In this document: positions 4,310-55,939 of the stretch, in pieces
Numbering within the stretch: position 1 is the first letter of the stretch
How the letters are laid out: every line of letters begins with the position of its first letter
Source: an uncultured Actinomycetota bacterium
GTDB lineage: Bacteria > Actinomycetota > Actinomycetes > Propionibacteriales > Nocardioidaceae
DNA: 64,000 nt
Direction: 5' to 3'
Assembly: GCA_963803235.1 (NCBI GenBank)
Contig: CAWDLL010000013.1
Coordinates: 13,722 to 77,721 of the forward strand
The notes under the pieces: model-generated
Database searches by the model: none
What the model saw: the letters and a program-made list of their open reading frames with translations, nothing else
What the model was told of the DNA's origin: nothing
Program-made: the position numbers and the translations under genes

Positions 4310-5479
4310 ATGCTCGCCAGACGCCTGCAGGGGATCGCGCCGACGATCTTCTCCCAGATGTCCGCCCTCGCCGTGCGCACGAACGCGGTCAACCTCGGCC
4401 AGGGGTTCCCGGACGTCGACGGCCCGCCGACGGTGATCGCCCGCGCGGTCGAGGCGCTCGAGGGCGGCGCCAACCAGTACGCCCCGGGGATCGGCGTACC
4501 CCCGCTGCGGGAGGCGATCGCCCGGCACCAGAAGCGGCACTACGGGCTCGACCTCGATCCCGACCGCGAGGTCGTGGTCACGACCGGGTGCACCGAGGGC
4601 GTCGCCGCGTCGCTGCTCGGTCTCGTCGACGAGGGCGACGAGGTGGTCGTGCTCGAGCCGTACTACGACTCGTACACGGCGATGATCCAGATGGCGGGAG
4701 GGGTACGCCGCCCGGTCACCCTGCGCGCCCCCGACTACCGCCTCGACCCCGACGAGCTCCGCGCGGCGGTGGGGCCGCGGACCCGCTTCATCCTGCTCAA
4801 CAGCCCGCACAACCCCACCGGGACCGTGCTCACCCGGGCCGAGCTCCAGGCGGTCGCGGACGTCGCGATCGAGCACGACCTCGTCGTGATCACCGACGAG
4901 GTCTACGAGCACCTGGTCTTCGACGACCACGAGCACGTGCCGCTGGCGACCCTGCCCGGCATGTTCGAGCGCACCCTCAGCCTGTCCAGCGCCGGCAAGT
5001 CCTACTCGTTCACCGGCTGGAAGGTCGGCTGGGCCACCGGCCCCGCGCCGCTGGTCGAGGCCGTGCTGGCCGCCAAGCAGTGGCTCACCTTCACCTCCGG
5101 CTCCCCGCTCCAGCCGGCCGTGGCGCACGCCCTGGAGGACGAGCAGGCGTTCCCCGGCGAGCTGCGGGCCAGCCTCCAGCAGCGCCGCGACCTGCTCTGC
5201 TCGGGCCTGGCCCGGGTCGGCCTCGACGTCCGGGTCCCCGAGGGCACCTACTTCGCGCTGACCGACATCGGCGACCTCGGGTGGCAGGACGGGATGTCGT
5301 TCTGCCTCGCCCTGCCCGAGCGGGCCGGCGTGGTCGCGATCCCCGCGCAGGCCTTCCACGACGACCAGGACGCCGGCCGGCACCTGGTGCGCTGGGCGTT
5401 CTGCAAGGAGGCGCCGGTGATCGAGGAGGGCCTGTCCCGGCTGGCCGGGAGCGGACCTGAAGGCGTAGCGGCGCCCTAG
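4310..5479 (+). CDS. PLP-dependent class I aminotransferase (DapC/YbdL-like)
   Basis: 'NLGQGFPD', 'NSPHNPTG', 'DEVYEHL', 'SAGKSYSFTGWKVGW'. Confidence 0.9.
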   Translation: MLARRLQGIAPTIFSQMSALAVRTNAVNLGQGFPDVDGPPTVIARAVEALEGGANQYAPGIGVPPLREAIARHQKRHYGLDLDPDREVVVTTGCTEGVAASLLGLVDEGDEVVVLEPYYDSYTAMIQMAGGVRRPVTLRAPDYRLDPDELRAAVGPRTRFILLNSPHNPTGTVLTRAELQAVADVAIEHDLVVITDEVYEHLVFDDHEHVPLATLPGMFERTLSLSSAGKSYSFTGWKVGWATGPAPLVEAVLAAKQWLTFTSGSPLQPAVAHALEDEQAFPGELRASLQQRRDLLCSGLARVGLDVRVPEGTYFALTDIGDLGWQDGMSFCLALPERAGVVAIPAQAFHDDQDAGRHLVRWAFCKEAPVIEEGLSRLAGSGPEGVAAP

Positions 5480-6183
5480 TAGACCGGCGCGGACTCGTCC
5501 CGGTCGTGGCGGCCGGCGTACCACTCACCGGCGCCGCCGGTGAACAGCAGCACGATCACGGCGATCGCGCCCAGCAGGCTGAACACCGCGAGCAGGCCAC
5601 CGAAGACGATCATGACCATGCTCGCGGCGATGGTCAGGCCCGAGGACACCACCAGGGTGATCCGCGCCCGCTCGGACCGCCGCAGGGCGAAGGCCGCGAG
5701 CAGGATCGCGCCGATGCTCCACACGGTGAGCAGTCCCAGGATCGTGGCGAGCACGACACCGGCGCCACCCCCCAGGATGTCCTGGCCCTCGAGCTCCTCG
5801 GCGATGGTGGCCTGGAGTGCGATCCCGACGGCCAGCGTGATGCCGAGCACCAGGGTCGCCATGCCGCTGAGCACGATCGTGACGATGCCGGCCGCGAGGA
5901 CGGTGCCGGGTCGCGCGTTCGGGTCGCGGGCGCCGAAGCCGGGCGGCCCGAAGCCGGGCCGGCCGTAGAGGTGCGGGGCGTACTGCCCGTAGGGCTGCTC
6001 GCCGTAGGGGTAGTACCCGGGCGGGGTCGCCCCGGCCGGCGGCACGCCGTACGGCTGCTGGCCGTAGGGCTGCTGGTACGGCGCGGGCTGGGCCGAGCCG
6101 TAGTGCCGGGGTGCGGGTGTGCCCGGCTGCGCAGCCGGCTGGTCCCCCGTCGGCGTCCCGGTGCCGCCGTACGTGTCACTCAT
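5476..6183 (-). CDS. Pro/Gln/Tyr-rich N-terminus + 4-TM membrane protein
   Basis: QQPYG repeats, then 'RPGTVLAA...RRSERARITL...LLFTGGAGEWY'. Confidence 0.75.
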   Translation of the reverse strand: MSDTYGGTGTPTGDQPAAQPGTPAPRHYGSAQPAPYQQPYGQQPYGVPPAGATPPGYYPYGEQPYGQYAPHLYGRPGFGPPGFGARDPNARPGTVLAAGIVTIVLSGMATLVLGITLAVGIALQATIAEELEGQDILGGGAGVVLATILGLLTVWSIGAILLAAFALRRSERARITLVVSSGLTIAASMVMIVFGGLLAVFSLLGAIAVIVLLFTGGAGEWYAGRHDRDESAPVY

Positions 6184-38483: not shown

Positions 38484-38750
38484 TCAGTCGACGACCTCGC
38501 CGGGTCGCGGGCTCCGACGCGGCCAGCGGCGCCGACGTGCCGCGGCGGGTGCTCGACAAGGCCGCTCACAGACGACGCAGTCGGGACGTCCACACCCCGT
38601 CGGTTCACCACCGGCGATGAGCTCCAGGGCTTCGTCGACGTACTGGTCCGCGAGCTTCCAGACGAGATCGAGGCGGCCCTCACCCACCGCGGCGTTGACC
38701 TCCCACGCGTAGCTGTCGTGCAGCTCCCGAAGCTGTTGCCTCTCACCCAT
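38484..38750 (-). CDS. Small hypothetical protein with a C-terminal Cys cluster
   Basis: 'LHDSYAWEVNAAVGEGRLDLV..LADQY', 'CGRPDCVVC'. Confidence 0.6.
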   Translation of the reverse strand: MGERQQLRELHDSYAWEVNAAVGEGRLDLVWKLADQYVDEALELIAGGEPTGCGRPDCVVCERPCRAPAAARRRRWPRRSPRPGEVVD

Positions 38751-38827
38751 CCGCCTGCCTCCACCGGTGCGAGCCCGCCGCCGGCGGCGGTCGAGTCGCC
38801 TCTCCAGTGTGCGCCTCGGCCGGGCAC

Positions 38828-40120
38828 CTAGTCGACGACCTCACCGTGCCGGCACGGACCTCGCGCTCGGCCTGGGCGTAGGGGTCGGTGCGCTCGTCGT
38901 AGCCCCAGAAGTCGCGCAGGCACAGCGCGGTGAGGGTCACGCCGGCGACGCAGGCGAAGCCGCCGCTGACGATGGCGCCGCGGACGCTCCAGAGGTCGGC
39001 GGTGACGCCGGCCCGGACCTGGCCGCCGAGCGGGCCGACCGAGTAGGACAGCATCTCGATGCCGGCCAGCCGGCCGCGCATGTTCTCGGGAATGGTCTGG
39101 TTCCAGACCGTGCCGCGGAAGACACCGGAGATCATGTCGGCCGCGCCGCTGAGCATGAAGAACACCAGCATCAGCCACACGCTCGGCATCAGGCCGGCAA
39201 TCCCCACGAAGCCGCCGTACGCCGCGGCCGCGATCACGATCGCCCGGCCGTGGTGGTGGATCCGGCCGGTCCAGCCGCTGAGTGCCGTCGCCAGCAAGCG
39301 CGCCGACGGTCTCGGCGGAGTAGAGCAGTCCGAGGACCTCCGGTTTGTCGAAGACCTCCTCGGCCAGCGCGGGGAAGAGCACGACCGGCATCGCGAGGAA
39401 CATCGCGGCGATGTCGACCAGGTAGGTGCCGAGCAGGTCGCGCCGCTTGAGGGCGTACCGGACACCTTCGCCGATCCCGGCCAGGCTCGGCGGCGTGGTC
39501 TCGGCCCGGTGGGGATAGGGGCGCATCGCGACGAAGAGCAGCGTGGCGATCGCCAGCCCGCAGATGTCGACCACGAAGCACCAGCCGATGCCGATGAACG
39601 CGATCAGCAGGCCACCGAGCGCGGGGCCGACCAGGACGCCGATCTGCATGCCGAGGCTGGTCAGCGAGTTGGCGGCGACGATCTGGTCGTGCTGCACCGT
39701 CCGCGGCATCAGCGCCTCGCGCGACGGCCGCTGCATCGACGAGGACGCGGCCAGGAAGCCGGAGACCACGAAGATGAGCGGCACGTTCGGGTCGTCGAGG
39801 AAGGCGTTCACGCACAGCACGGCGGTGAAGAACGCCTGGGCGATGCCCGTCCAGATCAGCAGCTTGCGTCGGTCGACGTGGTCGGCGAGCGCGCCGCCGT
39901 ACAGGCCGAAGACCATCAGCGGCACCAGCTCGACCAGGCCGATCGCGCCGACCGCGAAGTTGGAGCCGGTCAGTGTGTAGACCTGGTACGGGATGGCGAC
40001 GTAGCTGACCATCGCGCCGAAGTAGAAGACCGTCCCGGCGAGGAACAGCAGCCGGAAGTCGCGCGAGCGCAGCGGCGTGGTGTCCATCCGCATCGCGCGC
40101 AGCCGGTCTCGCCAGTTCAC
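38828..40120 (-). CDS. MFS transporter (EntS-like; frameshift near 39295)
   Basis: 'D.TPLRSRDFRLLF', 'GGALAD.VDRRK', 'LVDIAAMFLAMP', 'MRGRL.G'. Confidence 0.88.
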   Translation of the reverse strand: MNWRDRLRAMRMDTTPLRSRDFRLLFLAGTVFYFGAMVSYVAIPYQVYTLTGSNFAVGAIGLVELVPLMVFGLYGGALADHVDRRKLLIWTGIAQAFFTAVLCVNAFLDDPNVPLIFVVSGFLAASSSMQRPSREALMPRTVQHDQIVAANSLTSLGMQIGVLVGPALGGLLIAFIGIGWCFVVDICGLAIATLLFVAMRPYPHRAETTPPSLAGIGEGVRYALKRRDLLGTYLVDIAAMFLAMPVVLFPALAEEVFDKPEVLGLLYSAETVGALAGDGTQRLDRPDPPPRPGDRDRGRGVRRLRGDCRPDAERVADAGVLHAQRRGRHDLRCLPRHGLEPDHSREHARPAGRHRDAVLLGRPARRPGPGRRHRRPLERPRRHRQRRLRLRRRRDPHRAVPARLLGLRRAHRPLRPGRARGPCRHGEVVD

Positions 40121-40165
40121 AAGACGCAGATCCTGACACCACACGCTGGGTCAGCGCACGGGAAG

Positions 40166-43856: not shown

Positions 43857-44669
43857 TCAACCCCCGGTCGGCTCGTCGACCGGGGCCAGCCCCAGCGCCT
43901 CGAACCGGGCGAGCGACCTGGCGTCGGCCAGCTCGCGGCGCAGGTCTGCGTGCTCGAGGTAGAAGCGCAGCAGGTCCAGGGCGGCGTACGGGTCGACCGC
44001 CAGCTGGGTCGGGTTGACGGACACGGCGGCCCCCGACTGCCGCTCGAGCGTGAGCCAGTTGTCGACCCTGTCGTCCGGGGTCAGGAACGAGCCTCGGAAC
44101 CGGGTACGGCGCCAGTGGTCGCGCACCACGAGCACCTCCGACCACGGCACCGCGAGCGGTGGACGCCGCTGGGTGAGGACGACGGCGTCAGGAGTCAGCA
44201 CCAGGCCCCGGCGGGGGTACTCCCGAGCCTTGGCGGCCGACCGGGCGGCAATCAGCAGGAACGTGCCGCAGGCGAGGGCCGCCACCGCCCAGCCGGCCTG
44301 CCGGACCGGCCCCGCGGTCAGGGCCTCGACGAGCGCCCCGGCTCCAGCGCAGGCGAAGGTTCCGCCGACCACCACCAGCGAGAAGAGATTGACCGTCCGG
44401 ATCGGGTGGAACGGCAGCAGCACACAGGCGTGGATGAGGATCGGGTCCCGTCGCTCGCGCCCACCGGGGAGCGCCAGACCGACGAAGGCCATCCCGATCA
44501 CCACCAGGAACACCGCCGCCAGCCAGGCACTGCCGGCGATGGCGACCCCACCGCCGGCGAGACCGAGCCCGAACAGACCGACCAGCGCCTGGGCGACCCG
44601 GCCGCGGACGGGGTCGAGGTGCCAGCCTTCGCCCTCGCGGTTGAGGAACAGTCGGGTGCGCGCGGCCAT
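43857..44669 (-). CDS. Hypothetical membrane protein
   Basis: 4 TM segments then 'GL.LTP...VPW.EV'. Confidence 0.6.
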   Translation of the reverse strand: MAARTRLFLNREGEGWHLDPVRGRVAQALVGLFGLGLAGGGVAIAGSAWLAAVFLVVIGMAFVGLALPGGRERRDPILIHACVLLPFHPIRTVNLFSLVVVGGTFACAGAGALVEALTAGPVRQAGWAVAALACGTFLLIAARSAAKAREYPRRGLVLTPDAVVLTQRRPPLAVPWSEVLVVRDHWRRTRFRGSFLTPDDRVDNWLTLERQSGAAVSVNPTQLAVDPYAALDLLRFYLEHADLRRELADARSLARFEALGLAPVDEPTGG

Positions 44670-44678
44670 GGCGGTGTC

Positions 44679-45600
44679 CTACCCGCCGGGCTCGGCCTCC
44701 ACACGCCGGATCGACACGATGTCGTGCACCGGGATCGGGTTCTCGCGGGTGGCCTGGCAGGTCAGCCGGGTCTGCTCCCCCGGGGTGGTGCGCACCCGCA
44801 CCCGCCAGGTCGCACCGGCCACGTCGAAGTCGGCCTCGGTGGTCGTCGCCGTCCCGCTGTCGACGGGTCAGGCGGAGCGCGGCGTCCCGGGTCTCTCCGA
44901 GCTCGCGACGCAGGGCGATCTCGGCCGCCTGCACCGGCATGGCGAACCCGGACCGGCCGCGCAGGTGGTCGAGGTCGAGGTGTCCGGCCTCGTGGTCACC
45001 CGCGACCGAGAGGGCCGACGGCGCGTCGAGGCGGCCGTAGTAGAAGCCGTGCGGCAGCACCAGCAGGTTGCCGGCGAACCGGTCCCCTCCGATGTGCGAG
45101 ACCTCCCAGGTGTCCTCCGGATGGGCGGCCGACAGGGCGGCAGCCACCGGGCGGCCGCGCTCGGCGCAGCAGGCGTCGTGCCGGCCGTGGGTGCACACGC
45201 AGTAGACGTTGCCGGGGTCGCGCTCCAGCCCGGCGCTCGTTCCGGCCGCGAGGCCGGCGAAGTCGACGTCGAGCACGTCGTCCTTCTCGTACAGCTCGCC
45301 GCGCTCGAGCCAGGGCCGGTGCGGATGCGCGTACGCCGCGAACACGGTGATGTGGTGCCGCACCGGCCGCCGGCCGGGGCGACGCATGAGCAGCACCCGC
45401 ACGCCGGAGTCCGCAGCCTTGCGGCGCAGTCTCGGCCCGAGGTCGTGGGGCAGTCGCGCGTCGCGGAGCGCGTTCACGCCCCACGACCCGGCGTGCTCGA
45501 TCAGCAGGAACGCGCGCACCTGCGAGGCGGTGCCGCCGACCGGCTCGTCGCGCAGCAGGCTGGCTCCGGCGCACCGGAAGCCGGGGTCGGGGAGGATCAT
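44679..45600 (-). CDS. Sucrase-ferredoxin (thioredoxin-like [2Fe-2S]) family protein (frameshift near 44850)
   Basis: 'LLIEH.G.WG..A', 'VCTHGRHDACCAERGRP', 'WEVSHIGGDRFA.N.LVLPHG.YYGRL', C-terminal Cys. Confidence 0.88.
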
Positions 45601-46727
45601 CCGGCGACCTCGAGCAGCCCCTCCCGGGTCAGCCGGCGGCAGAGCACCAGCCGGCTCTGCGGATCGAGGTGGTCGGCCAGGTCGGCCGGCCGCAGCTCGG
45701 CCCGGGCGCGGATCTCGTCGAGCGCCGGCCGGAGCCAGGCGGGTACGTCGATGGCGCGGTCGCCGAGCAGCACCTCGACCCGGTCGCCGCGGTCGAGCAG
45801 CACGCAGGGGTGGCCGGGCCGGCGGCGCAGGAGGGTGGTGTCGGTCAGGTCGCGGACCGCGAGCACGTCCTTCAGCCCGCCGGGCACGCGCGGGCTGCGG
45901 GTGGTCAGGAAGCGGCGCACCTCGGCGCGCACCGCGGCGCCGGCGTCGACACGGCGTACCTCTTCGGCGAGGGCCTCGAGCCGGCCGGCGAGCTCGTCCG
46001 CCAGGTCGTCGGGAGCGTCGAGGTAGCCGCCCGGCAGGTGGTCGTCGGGCATCTCCGCCAGCACCTGCGTGACGCTGCGCTCGACCAGGCCGCGCCAGGT
46101 CAGCTGGTTGATGCCGAGCGTGACGTGCAGGGAGACCGTCTCCTGGGCGCGGGCGGCGTGCGGGGTGCCGGTCGGGAGGTACATCGAGAGGCCGGGCTCG
46201 AGCAGCACGTCCTCGACGCCGTCGGGGGTGTGCACCTCCCACTGCTTGGAGCCCTCGGTCTGGAACACGAAGACGTCGTGGGAGTCGGAGTGCACGGCGA
46301 AGCCCTGGGCACCGGGCGGCGTGAGGTAGGCGTTCGCCTGGCAGGGGTGGCCGAGCTCGAGCTCGAGCTCCGCGACCAGCCGGGTCAGCGGCGGCCAGTA
46401 GCGGTGCAGGCCCTGGAGGACGACCGTCGCGCCCTCGCCGAACGCCGCCAGCGCCTTGCGCGGGTCGACCAGTCCGGTGAGCTGCTTGCCGGCGAGCGTC
46501 GCGCCCCGGGTGTACGTCGACTCCCCCAGCACAGCGCCGTCGCGCGCCAGCCGCACCGACGGCGTCCGGATCGCCGTGGACGTCAGCAGGTGGTCGGCGT
46601 CGTCGAGGGAGAGCAGGCCGGCCAGTCGTTCGGGGTCGGTGCGGTGCAGGTGCACGCGGGATGCCCAGACCTTGGTGAGGAAGGTCTGGGCATCACCGCT
46701 GAGCAGGTCGAGTGCCGAGTCAGACAC
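45597..46727 (-). CDS. JmjC/cupin_4 2OG-Fe(II) oxygenase (YcfD/NO66-like)
   Basis: 'NAYLTPP..QGF..HSD.HDVF..Q..G.K.W', 'LEPG..MYLP.G.PH.A', C-terminal winged-helix-like 'RRL.REGLL'. Confidence 0.9.
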   Translation of the reverse strand: MSDSALDLLSGDAQTFLTKVWASRVHLHRTDPERLAGLLSLDDADHLLTSTAIRTPSVRLARDGAVLGESTYTRGATLAGKQLTGLVDPRKALAAFGEGATVVLQGLHRYWPPLTRLVAELELELGHPCQANAYLTPPGAQGFAVHSDSHDVFVFQTEGSKQWEVHTPDGVEDVLLEPGLSMYLPTGTPHAARAQETVSLHVTLGINQLTWRGLVERSVTQVLAEMPDDHLPGGYLDAPDDLADELAGRLEALAEEVRRVDAGAAVRAEVRRFLTTRSPRVPGGLKDVLAVRDLTDTTLLRRRPGHPCVLLDRGDRVEVLLGDRAIDVPAWLRPALDEIRARAELRPADLADHLDPQSRLVLCRRLTREGLLEVAG

Positions 46728-46968
46728 TCAGGACGCGTCTCCGTCGGTGGAGTCGGTGGCGTCGCCGTCCGTGCCGTCGGAGTCGGTGCCGTCCGAGTCT
46801 CCGCCGTCCGTGCCGTCGGAGTCGCTCGCGTCGCCGTCGGTGGAGTCGGTGGCGTCGCCGTCCGTGCCGTCGGAGTCGGTGCCGTCGGCGTCACCGCCGC
46901 CGCCACCCACGGGGCCGCTCGCCCGAGGTGGTCATGTCGTCGTCGTTGAGGGGCTCTTCGGGTGTCAT
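46728..46968 (-). CDS. Short Asp-rich repeat peptide (about 80 aa; frameshift near 46915); candidate precursor
   Basis: AGGAGGA RBS; 'MTPEEPLNDDDMTTSG...GGGGG' then D(A/S)DGTDSDGTDGDATDSTDGDAS twice; stop abuts the JmjC GTG. Confidence 0.8.
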
Positions 46969-47084
46969 CGTTCCTCCTGGGTCGGGGCCTGCGGCCAGTC
47001 TTTCGGTGCCGGAGACGCCGGACAAGAGCCCGCCGTTCTCCGTGGTCGCCGTACCCCACGGCGGCGTCTCCACACGCCGAGACG

Positions 47085-51977: not shown

Positions 51978-52610
51978 ATGTCGGAGAGGAAATTCCGCAT
52001 TCGCTACGCCGACGTGGCTGCCACGCTGGCCCTGATCATGGCCTCGGGAGGGACGGCGTACGCCGCGACCGCGCTACCGAAGAACTCGGTCGGCACCCCG
52101 CAGCTCAAGGCGGAGGCAGTCACCGCCGCGAAGGTCCGCGACCGGGCCGTCAGCGGTCCGAAGCTCAAGCCCGACGCAGTCACGAGCGACAAGGTCGCCG
52201 ACGGCGCGGTCGGCACCGGCCAGCTCGCGGACGGGTCGGTCACCACCGTCAAGATCGGCGCCGGCCAGATCACCGAAGGCCACCTGTTCCCCGGGTCGGT
52301 CGGGTCGGCCGCGGTGGCGGACGAGTCACTGTCGCTGTCCGACCTGATCGGGGGCCAGAACAACCCGCAGACCGCCGGGCTCGGCATGGAGGCCAACAGC
52401 TGTCTGGGCTTCTCGGGACTCCCGGTCCCTGGCGCACAGCAGGGGCAGCTGGTCACCGCAGGGTGGCTCCAAGCCCCACCCCAAGGAGTCGTGATCGCCT
52501 CGACCAGCGTGTCGGGACCCAATGCCGTAGCCCTGAGCGTCTGCAACGTGAGCAGCAGCTCGGTGTCGGTGCCTGGCGGAGCGACCTTCCGCATCGTCAC
52601 CTTCGGCTAG
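51978..52610 (+). CDS. Secreted protein with 10-residue repeats
   Basis: 'VAATLAL..A.GGTAYAA' signal-like segment; repeats such as 'DAVTSDKVAD/GAVGTGQLAD/GSVTTVKIGA'. Confidence 0.75.
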   Translation: MSERKFRIRYADVAATLALIMASGGTAYAATALPKNSVGTPQLKAEAVTAAKVRDRAVSGPKLKPDAVTSDKVADGAVGTGQLADGSVTTVKIGAGQITEGHLFPGSVGSAAVADESLSLSDLIGGQNNPQTAGLGMEANSCLGFSGLPVPGAQQGQLVTAGWLQAPPQGVVIASTSVSGPNAVALSVCNVSSSSVSVPGGATFRIVTFG

Positions 52611-53401: not shown

Positions 53402-54559
53402 TCAGACCGGGCGGCCGTCCTTCCACGTCGAGGCGACGAGGGGTACGCCGGGGCGGTAGGCGAGGTGCACGTGCGTGGGGGCGTCCAGCACCACCAGGTC
53501 CGCCCGCCGGCCGGGAACCAGGGCGCCGACGTCGTCGCGCTCCAGCGCCTCGGCGCCTCGGTACGTCGCGGCGTGGACCGCTTCGGCCGGGGTCATGCCC
53601 ATCTCGCGCACCGCGAGGGCGATGCAGAGAGGCACGGAGCTGGTGAAACAGGAGCCCGGGTTGCAGTCGCTGGCGATCGCGACCTTCACGCCGGCGTCGA
53701 TCAGCCGACGGGCATCCGGATAGGGCTGCTTCGTGGAGAACTCGACGCCCGGCAGCAGGGTCGCGATCGTGCCGGAGTCGCGGAGCGCGTCGACGTCGGC
53801 GTCCTCCAGGTAGGTGCAGTGGTCGACGGCTGCGAGTCCGAGCTCGGCGGCCAGCTGGACGCCGGGGCCGGGGCCGAGCTGGTTGGCGTGCAGCCTGCCC
53901 TTGAGCCCGGCGGCCGCCCCGACCTCGAGGATCCGGCGGGCCTGGTCGCCGTCGAAGGCGCCCCGCTCGCAGAACACGTCGATCCAGCGGGCGTGCGGCA
54001 CCGCCGCCTCCAGCATCGGACCGGTCACCAGGTCGACGTACGCCGCGGGGTCGCTGTCGGCGGGCACCACGTGCGCCCCGAGGAAGGTCGTCTCGTCGGT
54101 GAACTGCCGCGCCACCGCGAGGCCGCGCGCCTCGTCGTACACCGTGAGGCCGTAGCCGCTCTTGATCTCGACCGTGGTGGTGCCCTGCCGGCGCATCTCG
54201 GCGACCAGCCGCGCGACGTGGCTGGTCAGCTCCTCGTCGGTGGCCGCGCGGGTGGCCGCGACGGTGGTGCGGATGCCGCCGGCGGCGTAGCTCTCGCCGG
54301 CCATCCGGGCCGCGAACTCCTGCGCGCGGTCCCCGGCGAAGACCAGGTGGCTGTGGCTGTCGACGAAGCCGGGGAGCACGGTCCGGCCACCCAGGTCGAC
54401 GAGCTCGTCGGCGGGCGGAGCCTCCTGCGCGGGGCCGACCCAGCCGACGCGGCCGCCGTCGACGACGAGCGCGGCGCCCTCGACGATGCCGAGCAGGTCG
54501 TCGGCGTAGGGGTCGTTGGTGACCAGCTCGCCGATGTTGGTGAGCACGGTGCTCGTCAC
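53402..54559 (-). CDS. hutI: Imidazolonepropionase
   Basis: '[18 protein letters not shown]', '[13 protein letters not shown]', 'DVFCERGAF', 'HANQL', 'SDCNPGS'. Confidence 0.95.
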
Positions 54560-55939
54560 GACATCCCCTCCCAGACGGCGCCGATGGCGGCGTCGAGCTC
54601 GCGGCCGATCGGCCCGCGGTCACCCTGCCGGAAGACGACCCGGCCGTCGACCATCACCTGCGTGACGTCTTCGGCGGTGGCGGCGAAGACGGCGGTGTTC
54701 TCGTCGGCGCCGGTGCCGGCGGTCCGCGGGCTGGTCGTGTCGACGGTGACCAGGTCGGCTCGCTGACCGACGGCGATCGCGCCCGCGTCCTCGAAGCCGA
54801 GGCTGGCGTGCCCGTCGGTGGTGGCGGCGGCGATCAGCTCGGTCGCCGACCAGTGCCCGCGCTCCTGGGTGGCGAGCCGCTCGTCCAGCTCGACGGCGCG
54901 CATCTCCTCGAACAGGTCGATCACCGCGTGGCTGTCGCTGCCGAGCGTCAGCCGGCTGCCGGCGTCGTGCAGCTGGCGGCTCGGGCCGATGCCGTCGCCG
55001 AGGTCGCGCTCGGTGGTCGGGCAGAAGCAGGCGTGGCTGCGGCTGTCGCCGAGCAGCCGGATGTCGTCGTCGGTGAGATGGGTGGCGTGCACGACGGTGG
55101 TGTCCGGCCCGAGCAGCTCGTGGTCGGCGAGCAGCTCCGTGGGCGTGCGGACGTACTCGGCGACGCACGCCTGGTTCTCGGCGACCTGCTCGGAGAGGTG
55201 GATGTGCAGCGGGGCGTCGTGCTCCCGGGCCCAGGCGCCGACGACGGGCATCTGGTCGGCGCGGCACGGCGCGGACGGAGTGGATCGCCGCGCCGATGAC
55301 CACTCCCGGCCTGTCATTCCGGCGCAATTGCGCGGTTCTGGCAGCCCAGGCCTCCGCGGACCCGTCGGAGTAGCGCAATTGCGTCCCTGTGACAGGTTCG
55401 CCGAACCCGCTCGACAGGTAGCAGGTGTCGAGCAGGCTGATCCGGATCCCGGCCTCGCGGGCGGCCTCGATCAGGGCGTGGCCCATGGCGTTCGGGTCGT
55501 CGTACGGCGTCCCGTCGGGCTGGTGGTGCAGGTAGTGGAACTCCCCGACCGTCGTGATCCCGGCGGCGGCCATCTCCCGGTACGTCGCCCGGGCCAGCGC
55601 GAAGTAGGAGTCGGGGTCGAGCGTGGCCGCGACGTCGTACATCCGGTCCCGCCAGGTCCAGAACGTCCCCCGCTCCCGCTGCGTCCGCCCCCGCAGCGCC
55701 CGGTGGAACGCGTGGCTGTGGCAGTTCGCCAGGCCCGGGAGGGTCAGGCCGGGGAGCCGGTCGGGATCCCCGGCTGACCGGGGATCCGGGACGTTCGTGC
55801 CGGTTGCAACGCCCTCGAACGTCCCGGAACGATCGCGAGGTGTGACGGAAGTGAACACCCCGCGGTCCACCTCCACCAGTACGTCGTCGCGCACGGCGCC
55901 GTCGACCCACGCCCGCTCCAAGAGGTACGTCGCGCTCAC
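54556..55939 (-). CDS. hutF: Formimidoylglutamate deiminase (frameshift near 55265)
   Basis: '[17 protein letters not shown]', 'GEFHYLHH', 'HSVRAV', 'HIHLSEQ..EN', '[11 protein letters not shown]', 'GSDSH'. Confidence 0.92.

Follow-up and report, generated by a model that had tools for sequence, protein, structure and literature searches.

The window, meaning the whole 64-kb stretch of DNA analyzed here, contained an operon-like cassette of 3 genes on the minus strand, which encoded an acidic repeat peptide, a JmjC oxygenase, and a PF06999 ferredoxin, in this order. Comparison with related loci identified the trio as a real, widespread, and dedicated peptide-enzyme cassette. The view that the cassette works like a RiPP system is well supported, since the peptide was always encoded beside the enzyme, a conserved leader was combined with cores that vary, and a predicted domain of the leader-binding type is present in the enzyme. 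Our main reading, to which we assign a probability of about 60%, is that the peptide is the substrate of the oxygenase and that the target is the Asp residue in its [A/S/T]-D-G units.

Layout of the cassette in the source assembly

The following features were recognized, all of them on the minus strand.

46973..46978, minus strand: AGGAGG, the ribosome-binding site of the peptide gene, read from the sequence; a similar motif precedes 133 of 142 related peptide starts
46927..46968, minus strand: start of the peptide (ATG at 46968) and conserved leader, with the motif L-x-D-D-D-M-T-T at 46927-46950
46893..46926, minus strand: Gly/Pro linker, in which the frame is broken, probably by an error of the assembly, as judged from the 241 nt between ATG and stop, an alignment with five relatives, and the genome-wide break rate
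46728..46892, minus strand: repeat core of 54 amino acids composed of D, G, T, S, and A (21 Asp) and TGA stop codon, predicted substrate
45597..46727, minus strand: NO66/ROX-type JmjC Fe(II)/2OG oxygenase of 376 amino acids, based on Pfam, sequence and fold matches in the PDB, and a model of the related copy L003
45600..45842, minus strand: C-terminal winged helix of the oxygenase, predicted as β3-α3 from the secondary structure of the model, a match to WHD_ROXA, and the RRE definition given in PMC12710340
44679..45600, minus strand: PF06999 protein of the H-x-G-G-D type, in which the frame changes at ~44840-44860, with a C-terminal L-T-C beyond the break and a TAG stop codon at 44679-44681

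The stop codon of the peptide gene abutted the GTG start codon of the oxygenase gene, and an ATGA overlap joined the oxygenase and ferredoxin genes, in agreement with an earlier note on this DNA, which had described the 3 genes as coupled and the ribosome-binding site of the peptide gene as strong. The GC content of the window was 70% to 75%, and the closest named relatives of the oxygenase were found in Nocardioides and Aeromicrobium. A scan for promoters and terminators found nothing.

The core proper, located at 46731-46892, had a layout of 23+8+23 residues with alternative codons for Ser, Thr, Gly, and Ala between the repeats, and was present in a single copy in the genome. The distance from ATG to stop was 241 nt (80 codons plus 1 nt), and the leader and the core are therefore in different frames. 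In a DNA alignment to five relatives, the position of the break was narrowed down to the linker (about 46893 to 46929). The leader, the linker, the core of 54 residues with 21 Asp, and the 23+8+23 layout described in the earlier note were thus all present, but the leader and the core were not in one frame as sequenced. The ferredoxin gene also changed frame as sequenced, at ~44840-44860.

To estimate the frequency of frame breaks in the source assembly, 243 ORFs were taken from a complete relative, in which they covered 19 stretches; 89 of these ORFs had a clear orthologue in the source genome. It was found that 30 of these 89 orthologues were frame-broken (0.38 breaks per kb), a rate at which 2.3 kb should contain about 0.9 breaks. 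The breaks in the peptide and ferredoxin genes are most likely assembly errors, because so many orthologues were broken in the same way. That both breaks are real and that this particular copy of the cassette is decaying in the source strain seems quite improbable; 2 of the 3 genes are indeed broken, but this has to be set against the assembly-wide break rate and against the identity to relatives, which remained high on either side of each break.

Distribution of the cassette and diversity of the peptides

The oxygenase was present in 23 of 41 relatives and in 15 of 24 genomes of the same genus, and was matched in 72 of 401 genomes of the phylum, where most of the examined genomes (loci were examined for 68 of the 72) also contained the peptide. 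A scan of a genome collection added at least 71 loci. After the removal of 7 duplicates, we analyzed a total of 163 loci, among which duplicates between other searches may remain; 157 were at 33% identity or above and 6 below, and one (L053), on which none of the conclusions rests, came from the unpublished genome G128. The locus counts given below are not independent, because the loci are related.

In 147 of the 153 genome loci with at least 400 nt of upstream sequence, the JmjC gene was directly preceded by an acidic ORF of 40 to 230 amino acids that ended at the oxygenase start. Of the 6 loci that failed this strict test, 5 contained a frame-shifted repeat and 1 contained an N gap. The controls were positive in none of 6 distant JmjC loci and at 17 of 1,920 random positions of the own genome. 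A more lenient test was passed by all 153 loci, but also by 356 of 3,000 random windows. Of 560 metagenome loci, the 80 best were examined, and the acidic ORF was found upstream in all 59 with enough flanking sequence. The earlier note had made its proposal depend on homologous pairs having an acidic peptide, which is what was observed at the 147 genome loci. In 108 of 140 cases, the peptide gene stopped from -25 to +40 nt relative to the called start of the oxygenase gene. A ferredoxin gene followed the oxygenase gene on the same strand in 141 of 151 genome loci, and in 2 of the 10 remaining loci (L178 and L210) it was located further on or on the opposite strand; the corresponding number was 43 of 45 among the 80 best metagenome loci.

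A profile search of 15 near-complete related genomes identified no member of the oxygenase family in any of them (13 without a match and 2 with weak, distant matches), and the family is therefore not a housekeeping one. Beyond the phylum, the analysis covered matches on plasmids, which were at 26% to 35% identity. Within up to 4 kb, every other neighboring gene family was confined to 16 of 110 loci at most, according to rough counts in which the clustering included wrong-frame text. Genes for MFS proteins were located near the cassette in about 8 of the 110 loci; MFS, P450, LuxR-AAA, and hut neighbors were rejected as parts of the cassette, since they reflected local synteny only. Neither a conserved exporter nor a conserved protease was found within up to 4 kb in these 110 loci, and none of 142 peptides contained a signal-like hydrophobic stretch, consistent with the previous remark that no signal peptide or protease was evident.

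The peptides ranged in length from 50 to 218 amino acids, with a median of 86. The leader consensus, (P)L-x-D-[DE]-[DE]-[IM]-x-T, was identified within 800 nt upstream of the oxygenase gene in 136 of 153 loci, as compared to 14 of 1,000 random windows, and a conserved leader, which the earlier note had suggested looking for, was thereby found. The motif was missing in about 17 of the 153 loci, most of which were of the ADGG type. The degenerate leader pattern also matched ordinary proteins, but an acidic repeat core followed it only at oxygenase loci, as seen in 30 loci that were read. The linker between the leader and the first core unit had a median length of 12 residues. In double-glycine or NHLP-type leaders, a GG/GA cleavage site comes after an acidic helix, and a C39 peptidase transporter is responsible for processing. 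Compared with this consensus, G-[G/A/S] was present within 3 residues after the leader motif in 65 of 127 peptides.

Three core types were distinguished, DxDGTD (found in the window), ADGG, and GEH, and the leader was conserved across them. When 60 enzymes were placed in a quick tree, a single clade (17 rows, SH-aLRT 99), including one atypical peptide, corresponded to the ADGG type, and a separate clade (3 rows, SH-aLRT 100) to the GEH type. The cores consisted of 33% D, 25% G, 15% A, 12% T, and 8% S, and the most common triplets were ADG (537), TDG (442), and SDG (202). Some cores were nearly pure D/G/A, such as (DGGA)n in L022, and since they contain almost only these residues, Asp is the sole residue with a β-methylene group in them. 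Peptides of the DGGA type may be those that go under the label BatC. The GEH-type cores lacked D-G units, yet the corresponding enzymes had the same pocket. Pfam contained no match to the peptides or the leader, and NCBIfam contained no model for the 3 genes or for the peptides of the relatives.

The oxygenase and the ferredoxin-like protein

The oxygenase matched PF08007 with an E-value of 1e-18. The source protein contained the iron ligands H146-x-D148 and H190 as well as K161 for 2OG, confirming the HxD...H triad and the 2OG Lys pointed out before, and these 4 residues were invariant in 80 of 80 aligned enzymes. Residues R59, V103, Q130, N132, Y134, H150, and G205 were also invariant in all 80 enzymes and probably line the substrate pocket, judging from the alignment to NO66 and from the ROX structures. 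A model of the L003 copy, which is 81% identical to the source protein (pLDDT 96), matched NO66 over its full length (1-376; Z 26.7, rmsd 5.8, 360 aligned residues; Foldseek E 8e-24), and the next fold matches were to MINA, YcfD, and YxbC. It consisted of a JmjC domain, a helical dimerization region, and a C-terminal winged helix, as in ROX.

In a more distant set of 16 JmjC enzymes from plasmids and genomes, a small and related sample, 6 contained both Q130 and H150. Five of these (L137, L322, L328, L330, and L331) were located behind short ORFs with Asp-containing C-termini, and no clear ORF was found for L325, whereas enzymes with E/D130 and V/I150 (L321, L324, and L329) were located behind peptides ending in Y/H-x-N-I-Q. 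H150 alone was also found in JmjC enzymes of unrelated clusters. Within the limits of this small, related sample, the Asp-containing peptides next to the Q130 and H150 enzymes favor Asp as the target, while the GEH-type cores speak against it. The next-nearest JmjC relatives were located in clusters for peptide modification, together with YcaO-like, LanM, thiopeptide, or peptidase genes.

The winged helix in the L003 model was composed of strands 309-313, 316-320, and 325-329 and helices 330-341, 347-350, and 356-368, and it matched WHD_ROXA in the ESM Atlas. RREs are defined by 3 strands followed by 3 helices in PMC12710340, and the modeled C-terminus of the oxygenase displayed this β3-α3 order. 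JmjC-fused RRE folds with bacterial homologues in RiPP-like contexts are described in the same paper, which also lists a model named Cupin_JmjC_RRE (RREFam042); the words acidic, ferredoxin, and Nocardioides do not occur in its main text. A winged-helix profile aligned to 27 lasso RREs with an hhalign probability of 1% and out of register, Pfam and PDB scans gave no match to PqqD, and a single-sequence hhalign search gave nothing significant. The domain contained the conserved Arg residues R303, R364, R365, and R368 and had a median net charge of +1, and such a positive winged helix would suit an acidic leader. In ROX, according to PMC6182338, the winged-helix domain is negative and its function unclear.

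A leader-like motif was located in frame at the N-terminus of the enzymes P0227 and P0263, which provides a weak hint. These two putative leader-enzyme fusions are singletons or nearly so and could be gene-calling artifacts, and a search for relatives of the N-terminal extension of P0227 retrieved P0227 only. Five other candidate fusions (P0300, P0285, P0302, P0309, and P0347) were rejected as out-of-frame text.

The ferredoxin gene of the window matched PF06999 from 45600 with an E-value of 3e-15. The earlier note had compared it with proteins of the Apd1/Aim32 type and pointed to an SHxGG motif. In Aim32, the ligands are arranged as C-x8-C...H-x3-H (PMC8482512). The SHxGG motif was present, but it continued with D rather than with the H of Apd1/Aim32, and the protein is not of the plain Apd1/Aim32 type because the second His ligand was replaced by Asp: H-x-G-G-D was found in 138 of 141 cassette copies (one contained C and 2 were left unread) and in all 42 copies that were read among the 80 best metagenome loci. 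In contrast, the stand-alone copies, a count that leaves out the locus L207, which was not parsed, contained the canonical H-x-G-G-H in 19 of 21 cases, with one T and one D, and the copy with D came from G321, where a peptide-oxygenase pair lies ~22 kb away from it. Occasional paralogues upstream of the cassette contained H in 8 of 8 cases.

Five Cys residues were invariant in 71 cassette copies, including the one in the C-terminal L-T-C, and an extra His was near-invariant; C141 and C150, which form the C-x8-C motif, were among the residues conserved in 71 of 71 copies. Because the D variant follows the cassette and the 5 Cys residues are invariant, the cassette ferredoxin is a dedicated subfamily with changed ligands, outside Apd1/Aim32 by its ligand set. 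In a model of the relative L060 (pLDDT 96), the central domain (residues 133-227) had a thioredoxin-like ferredoxin fold, with a match to the Aquifex ferredoxin (Z 10.0, rmsd 2.7, 95 aligned residues), and the flanking N- and C-terminal parts gave no clear match. Nine genomes with an oxygenase but without a same-strand ferredoxin gene behind it, or with a second locus, were tested, and 4 of them (G168, G184, G310, and G336), which all contained the peptide-oxygenase pair, yielded no PF06999 gene.

Proposed chemistry and comparison with known systems

We propose a mechanism in which the oxygenase very probably acts on the peptide as its substrate. Given this, the β-carbon of the repeated Asp in the [A/S/T]-D-G units is the probable site of hydroxylation. 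Asp is favored because Asp, Gly, and Ala are common to the main core types and NO66 and MINA hydroxylate β-carbons (PMC6182338), and Asp hydroxylation would accordingly be the likeliest chemistry. We lean toward docking of the acidic leader on the winged helix of the oxygenase, and the flexible linker would most likely let the repeats pass through the active site. The odds appear even that the Fe-S protein re-reduces the iron of the oxygenase, with no catalytic step of its own, and such an accessory redox step would not be essential, because the PF06999 gene was not found in 4 of the 9 genomes tested. More doubtfully, the uncleaved product may stay in the cytoplasm as a polyanion with metal-binding α-hydroxy-acid groups, where metal binding is speculation from composition.

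With respect to features of RiPP systems, a precursor with a leader and a variable core was found, as was an enzyme encoded beside it, whereas genes for leader removal or export, which are usual but not universal, were not found within up to 4 kb among the 110 loci. The RiPP-like system suggested in the earlier note is well supported by the linkage of precursor and enzyme and by the leader over variable cores, while a role in metal chelation or storage is speculation from composition.

The ferredoxin could have a more active role, in which Asp is first hydroxylated by the oxygenase and the resulting β-hydroxy-Asp, which resembles malate, is then dehydrated or oxidized to dehydro-Asp or keto-acid units at an open iron site of the H-x-G-G-D protein. 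Malate-like compounds are substrates of Fe-S hydro-lyases, and the D variant goes with the cassette (138 of 141 copies as compared to 1 of 21 stand-alone copies). The protein also has 5 invariant Cys, one of them in the C-terminal L-T-C, a near-invariant extra His, and terminal regions on both sides of the part that matched ferredoxins. However, the fold matches were to electron-transfer ferredoxins only and 4 genomes with the pair lacked a detectable ferredoxin gene, and we consider such a two-enzyme pathway unlikely. The peptide could also be an acidic regulator, a decoy, or a metal chaperone, with the oxygenase acting, like NO66, MINA, and YcfD, on a ribosomal protein or on another protein of the cell. 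Very acidic, low-complexity proteins are often mimics or chaperones, and the full three-domain ROX architecture fits this idea. It is nevertheless made quite unlikely by the patchy presence (15 of 24, 72 of 401, and 0 of 15 genomes in the sets above), by core types that follow the enzyme clades, and by the peptide-modification clusters around the next-nearest JmjC relatives; patchiness and peptide linkage indirectly disfavor a ribosomal protein as the substrate.

If the peptide is the substrate, the target might be something other than the β-carbon of Asp, for example the Cα of Gly, with hydroxylation leading to backbone scission and short amidated units, or Ala or Thr, which would be oxidized. 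Gly follows Asp in the most common triplets, the invariant Gly205 and Val103 are placed in the pocket, and backbone scission would explain why no protease is conserved nearby. Yet the closest solved relatives hydroxylate side-chain β-carbons (PMC6182338), and the invariant Arg59, Gln130, and His150 would suit a carboxylate, which makes a target other than Asp very unlikely. An extended version of our main reading, which we regard as improbable, would be a new RiPP class, in which an RRE-bearing NO66-type enzyme repeatedly hydroxylates a poly-Asp core and the ferredoxin with its Cys2/His/Asp ligands is the first catalytic member of Apd1/Aim32, converting β-hydroxy-Asp into the dehydro- or keto-units of a polymer that binds metal inside the cell. 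In that case, human NO66 and MINA would have kept, in their winged helix, a domain for leader recognition.

If hydroxylation occurs as proposed, the product would be a new kind of enzyme-modified peptide, and an enzyme that hydroxylates Asp at many sites under the guidance of a leader would be useful in producing metal-binding peptides. With only 3 easily expressed genes, the cassette offers a test of the role of the ROX winged helix, called unclear in PMC6182338, and of the role of bacterial Apd1/Aim32-like proteins. Although the cassette is common (72 of 401 genomes of the phylum), 9 of 10 peptides looked up were missing from a collection of 15 billion proteins, and the tenth was listed as a hypothetical protein. 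No description of the trio was found in open PubMed Central papers and bioRxiv, and it may be described elsewhere.

Among known systems, the ROX proteins (human NO66/RIOX1 and MINA53/RIOX2, E. coli YcfD, and Rhodothermus YcfD) have the same three-domain architecture, HxD...H triad, and 2OG Lys as the cassette oxygenase, but the identity is only ~20% to 24% and the cassette enzyme has its own invariant residues R59, V103, Q130, H150, and G205. Unlike ROX, it is dispensable and always coupled to a dedicated acidic peptide. Asp β-hydroxylation is carried out by CinX in the biosynthesis of cinnamycin and duramycin. It is also described for PesHI and nitrilobacillin (PMC13060819). PesHI and CinX perform the chemistry proposed here, but at a single site, whereas up to tens of sites are possible in the cassette peptides, and PesHI is described as an MNIO rather than a JmjC enzyme. 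Leader-dependent 2OG hydroxylases are known (10.64898/2026.10.04.756588), and CzlI of curacozole (PMC11575548) and BipG of biphenomycin (PMC12707348) are reported as JmjC Fe/2OG enzymes that hydroxylate a co-encoded RiPP precursor. These 2 enzymes perform tailoring on Phe or ornithine in multi-enzyme clusters, whereas the JmjC protein is the main enzyme here, acting beside a long Asp/Gly repeat core and no conserved protease or exporter. RREFam042 resembles the cassette oxygenase, by its description, in combining JmjC with a β3-α3 RRE-like domain. Finally, the cassette ferredoxin shares with Apd1/Aim32, as described in PMC8482512, the PF06999 family, the thioredoxin-like ferredoxin fold, the C-x8-C motif, and the first His, but differs in having H-x3-D instead of H-x3-H and an extra invariant C-terminal Cys. 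The H-x3-D form occurs almost only with the cassette, whereas the canonical H-x3-H paralogues stand alone.

Features beside the cassette

Four further features of the window were recorded.

38743-40144, minus strand: MFS-like gene, apparently split by frame changes
43857-44669, minus strand: membrane-type ORF of 270 aa, beginning 9 nt past the ferredoxin stop
52004-52610, plus strand: ORF in which short repeats follow the pattern V-T-x-x-K-I/V-x-D-G-A-V
54556-55939, minus strand: hutF-like gene, apparently split by frame changes

The splits in the MFS-like and hutF-like genes are in line with the indel load of the assembly. The 270-aa ORF gave no match in Pfam or NCBIfam and was outside the set of conserved cassette neighbors, and the repeat ORF had no Pfam match at E 0.01.

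Variant cores and leader-enzyme fusions

The cassette leader was retained at L131, L132, and L133, where the tandem core was of the GEH type, which lacks D-G units, the oxygenase gene downstream of this core was long-branched, and an adjacent ferredoxin gene was absent. In genome G321, a ferredoxin of the H-x-G-G-D type was located about 22 kb away (L209). The peptide core at L051 carried (H-D-S)n repeats, and this His-containing variant hints more at metal binding. Leader-like motifs were also identified in frame at the N-terminus of the oxygenases P0227, which contained 2 of them, and P0263, and these proteins are possibly natural fusions of leader and enzyme.

Other JmjC loci

By eye, the translated ORFs located 3' of 2 distant JmjC genes were called YcaO-like (L134) and HExxH-motif (L135).

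The JmjC genes at L321, L324, and L329 on Streptomyces plasmids were preceded by unannotated ORFs of 27 to 28 aa with a C-terminal Y/H-x-N-I-Q. Each cluster contained 2 cupins, with an M13 peptidase, a carbamoyltransferase, and DinB additionally present at L321 and L324, and an MFS transporter at L329. These loci represent a RiPP-like family separate from the acidic-peptide cassette. A further small peptide-JmjC cassette, conserved in Streptomyces (L328, L330, L331, and L137), comprised genes for a 45-aa ORF with a C-terminal G-R-S-D-G-N-D, a JmjC protein, an aldo-keto reductase, and a phosphotransferase-like protein.

4769-6164: peptide-JmjC locus L322, Streptomyces clavuligerus plasmid NZ_CP065235.1

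At this locus, an Asp/Pro-rich ORF of 48 aa carrying a leader-like acidic motif was located immediately upstream of a JmjC gene, the neighbors of which encoded an S9 peptidase and an ABC transporter. The JmjC protein contained the pocket residues Q130/H150/G205, as in the cassette oxygenase, and the system is possibly an exported cousin of the acidic-peptide cassette.
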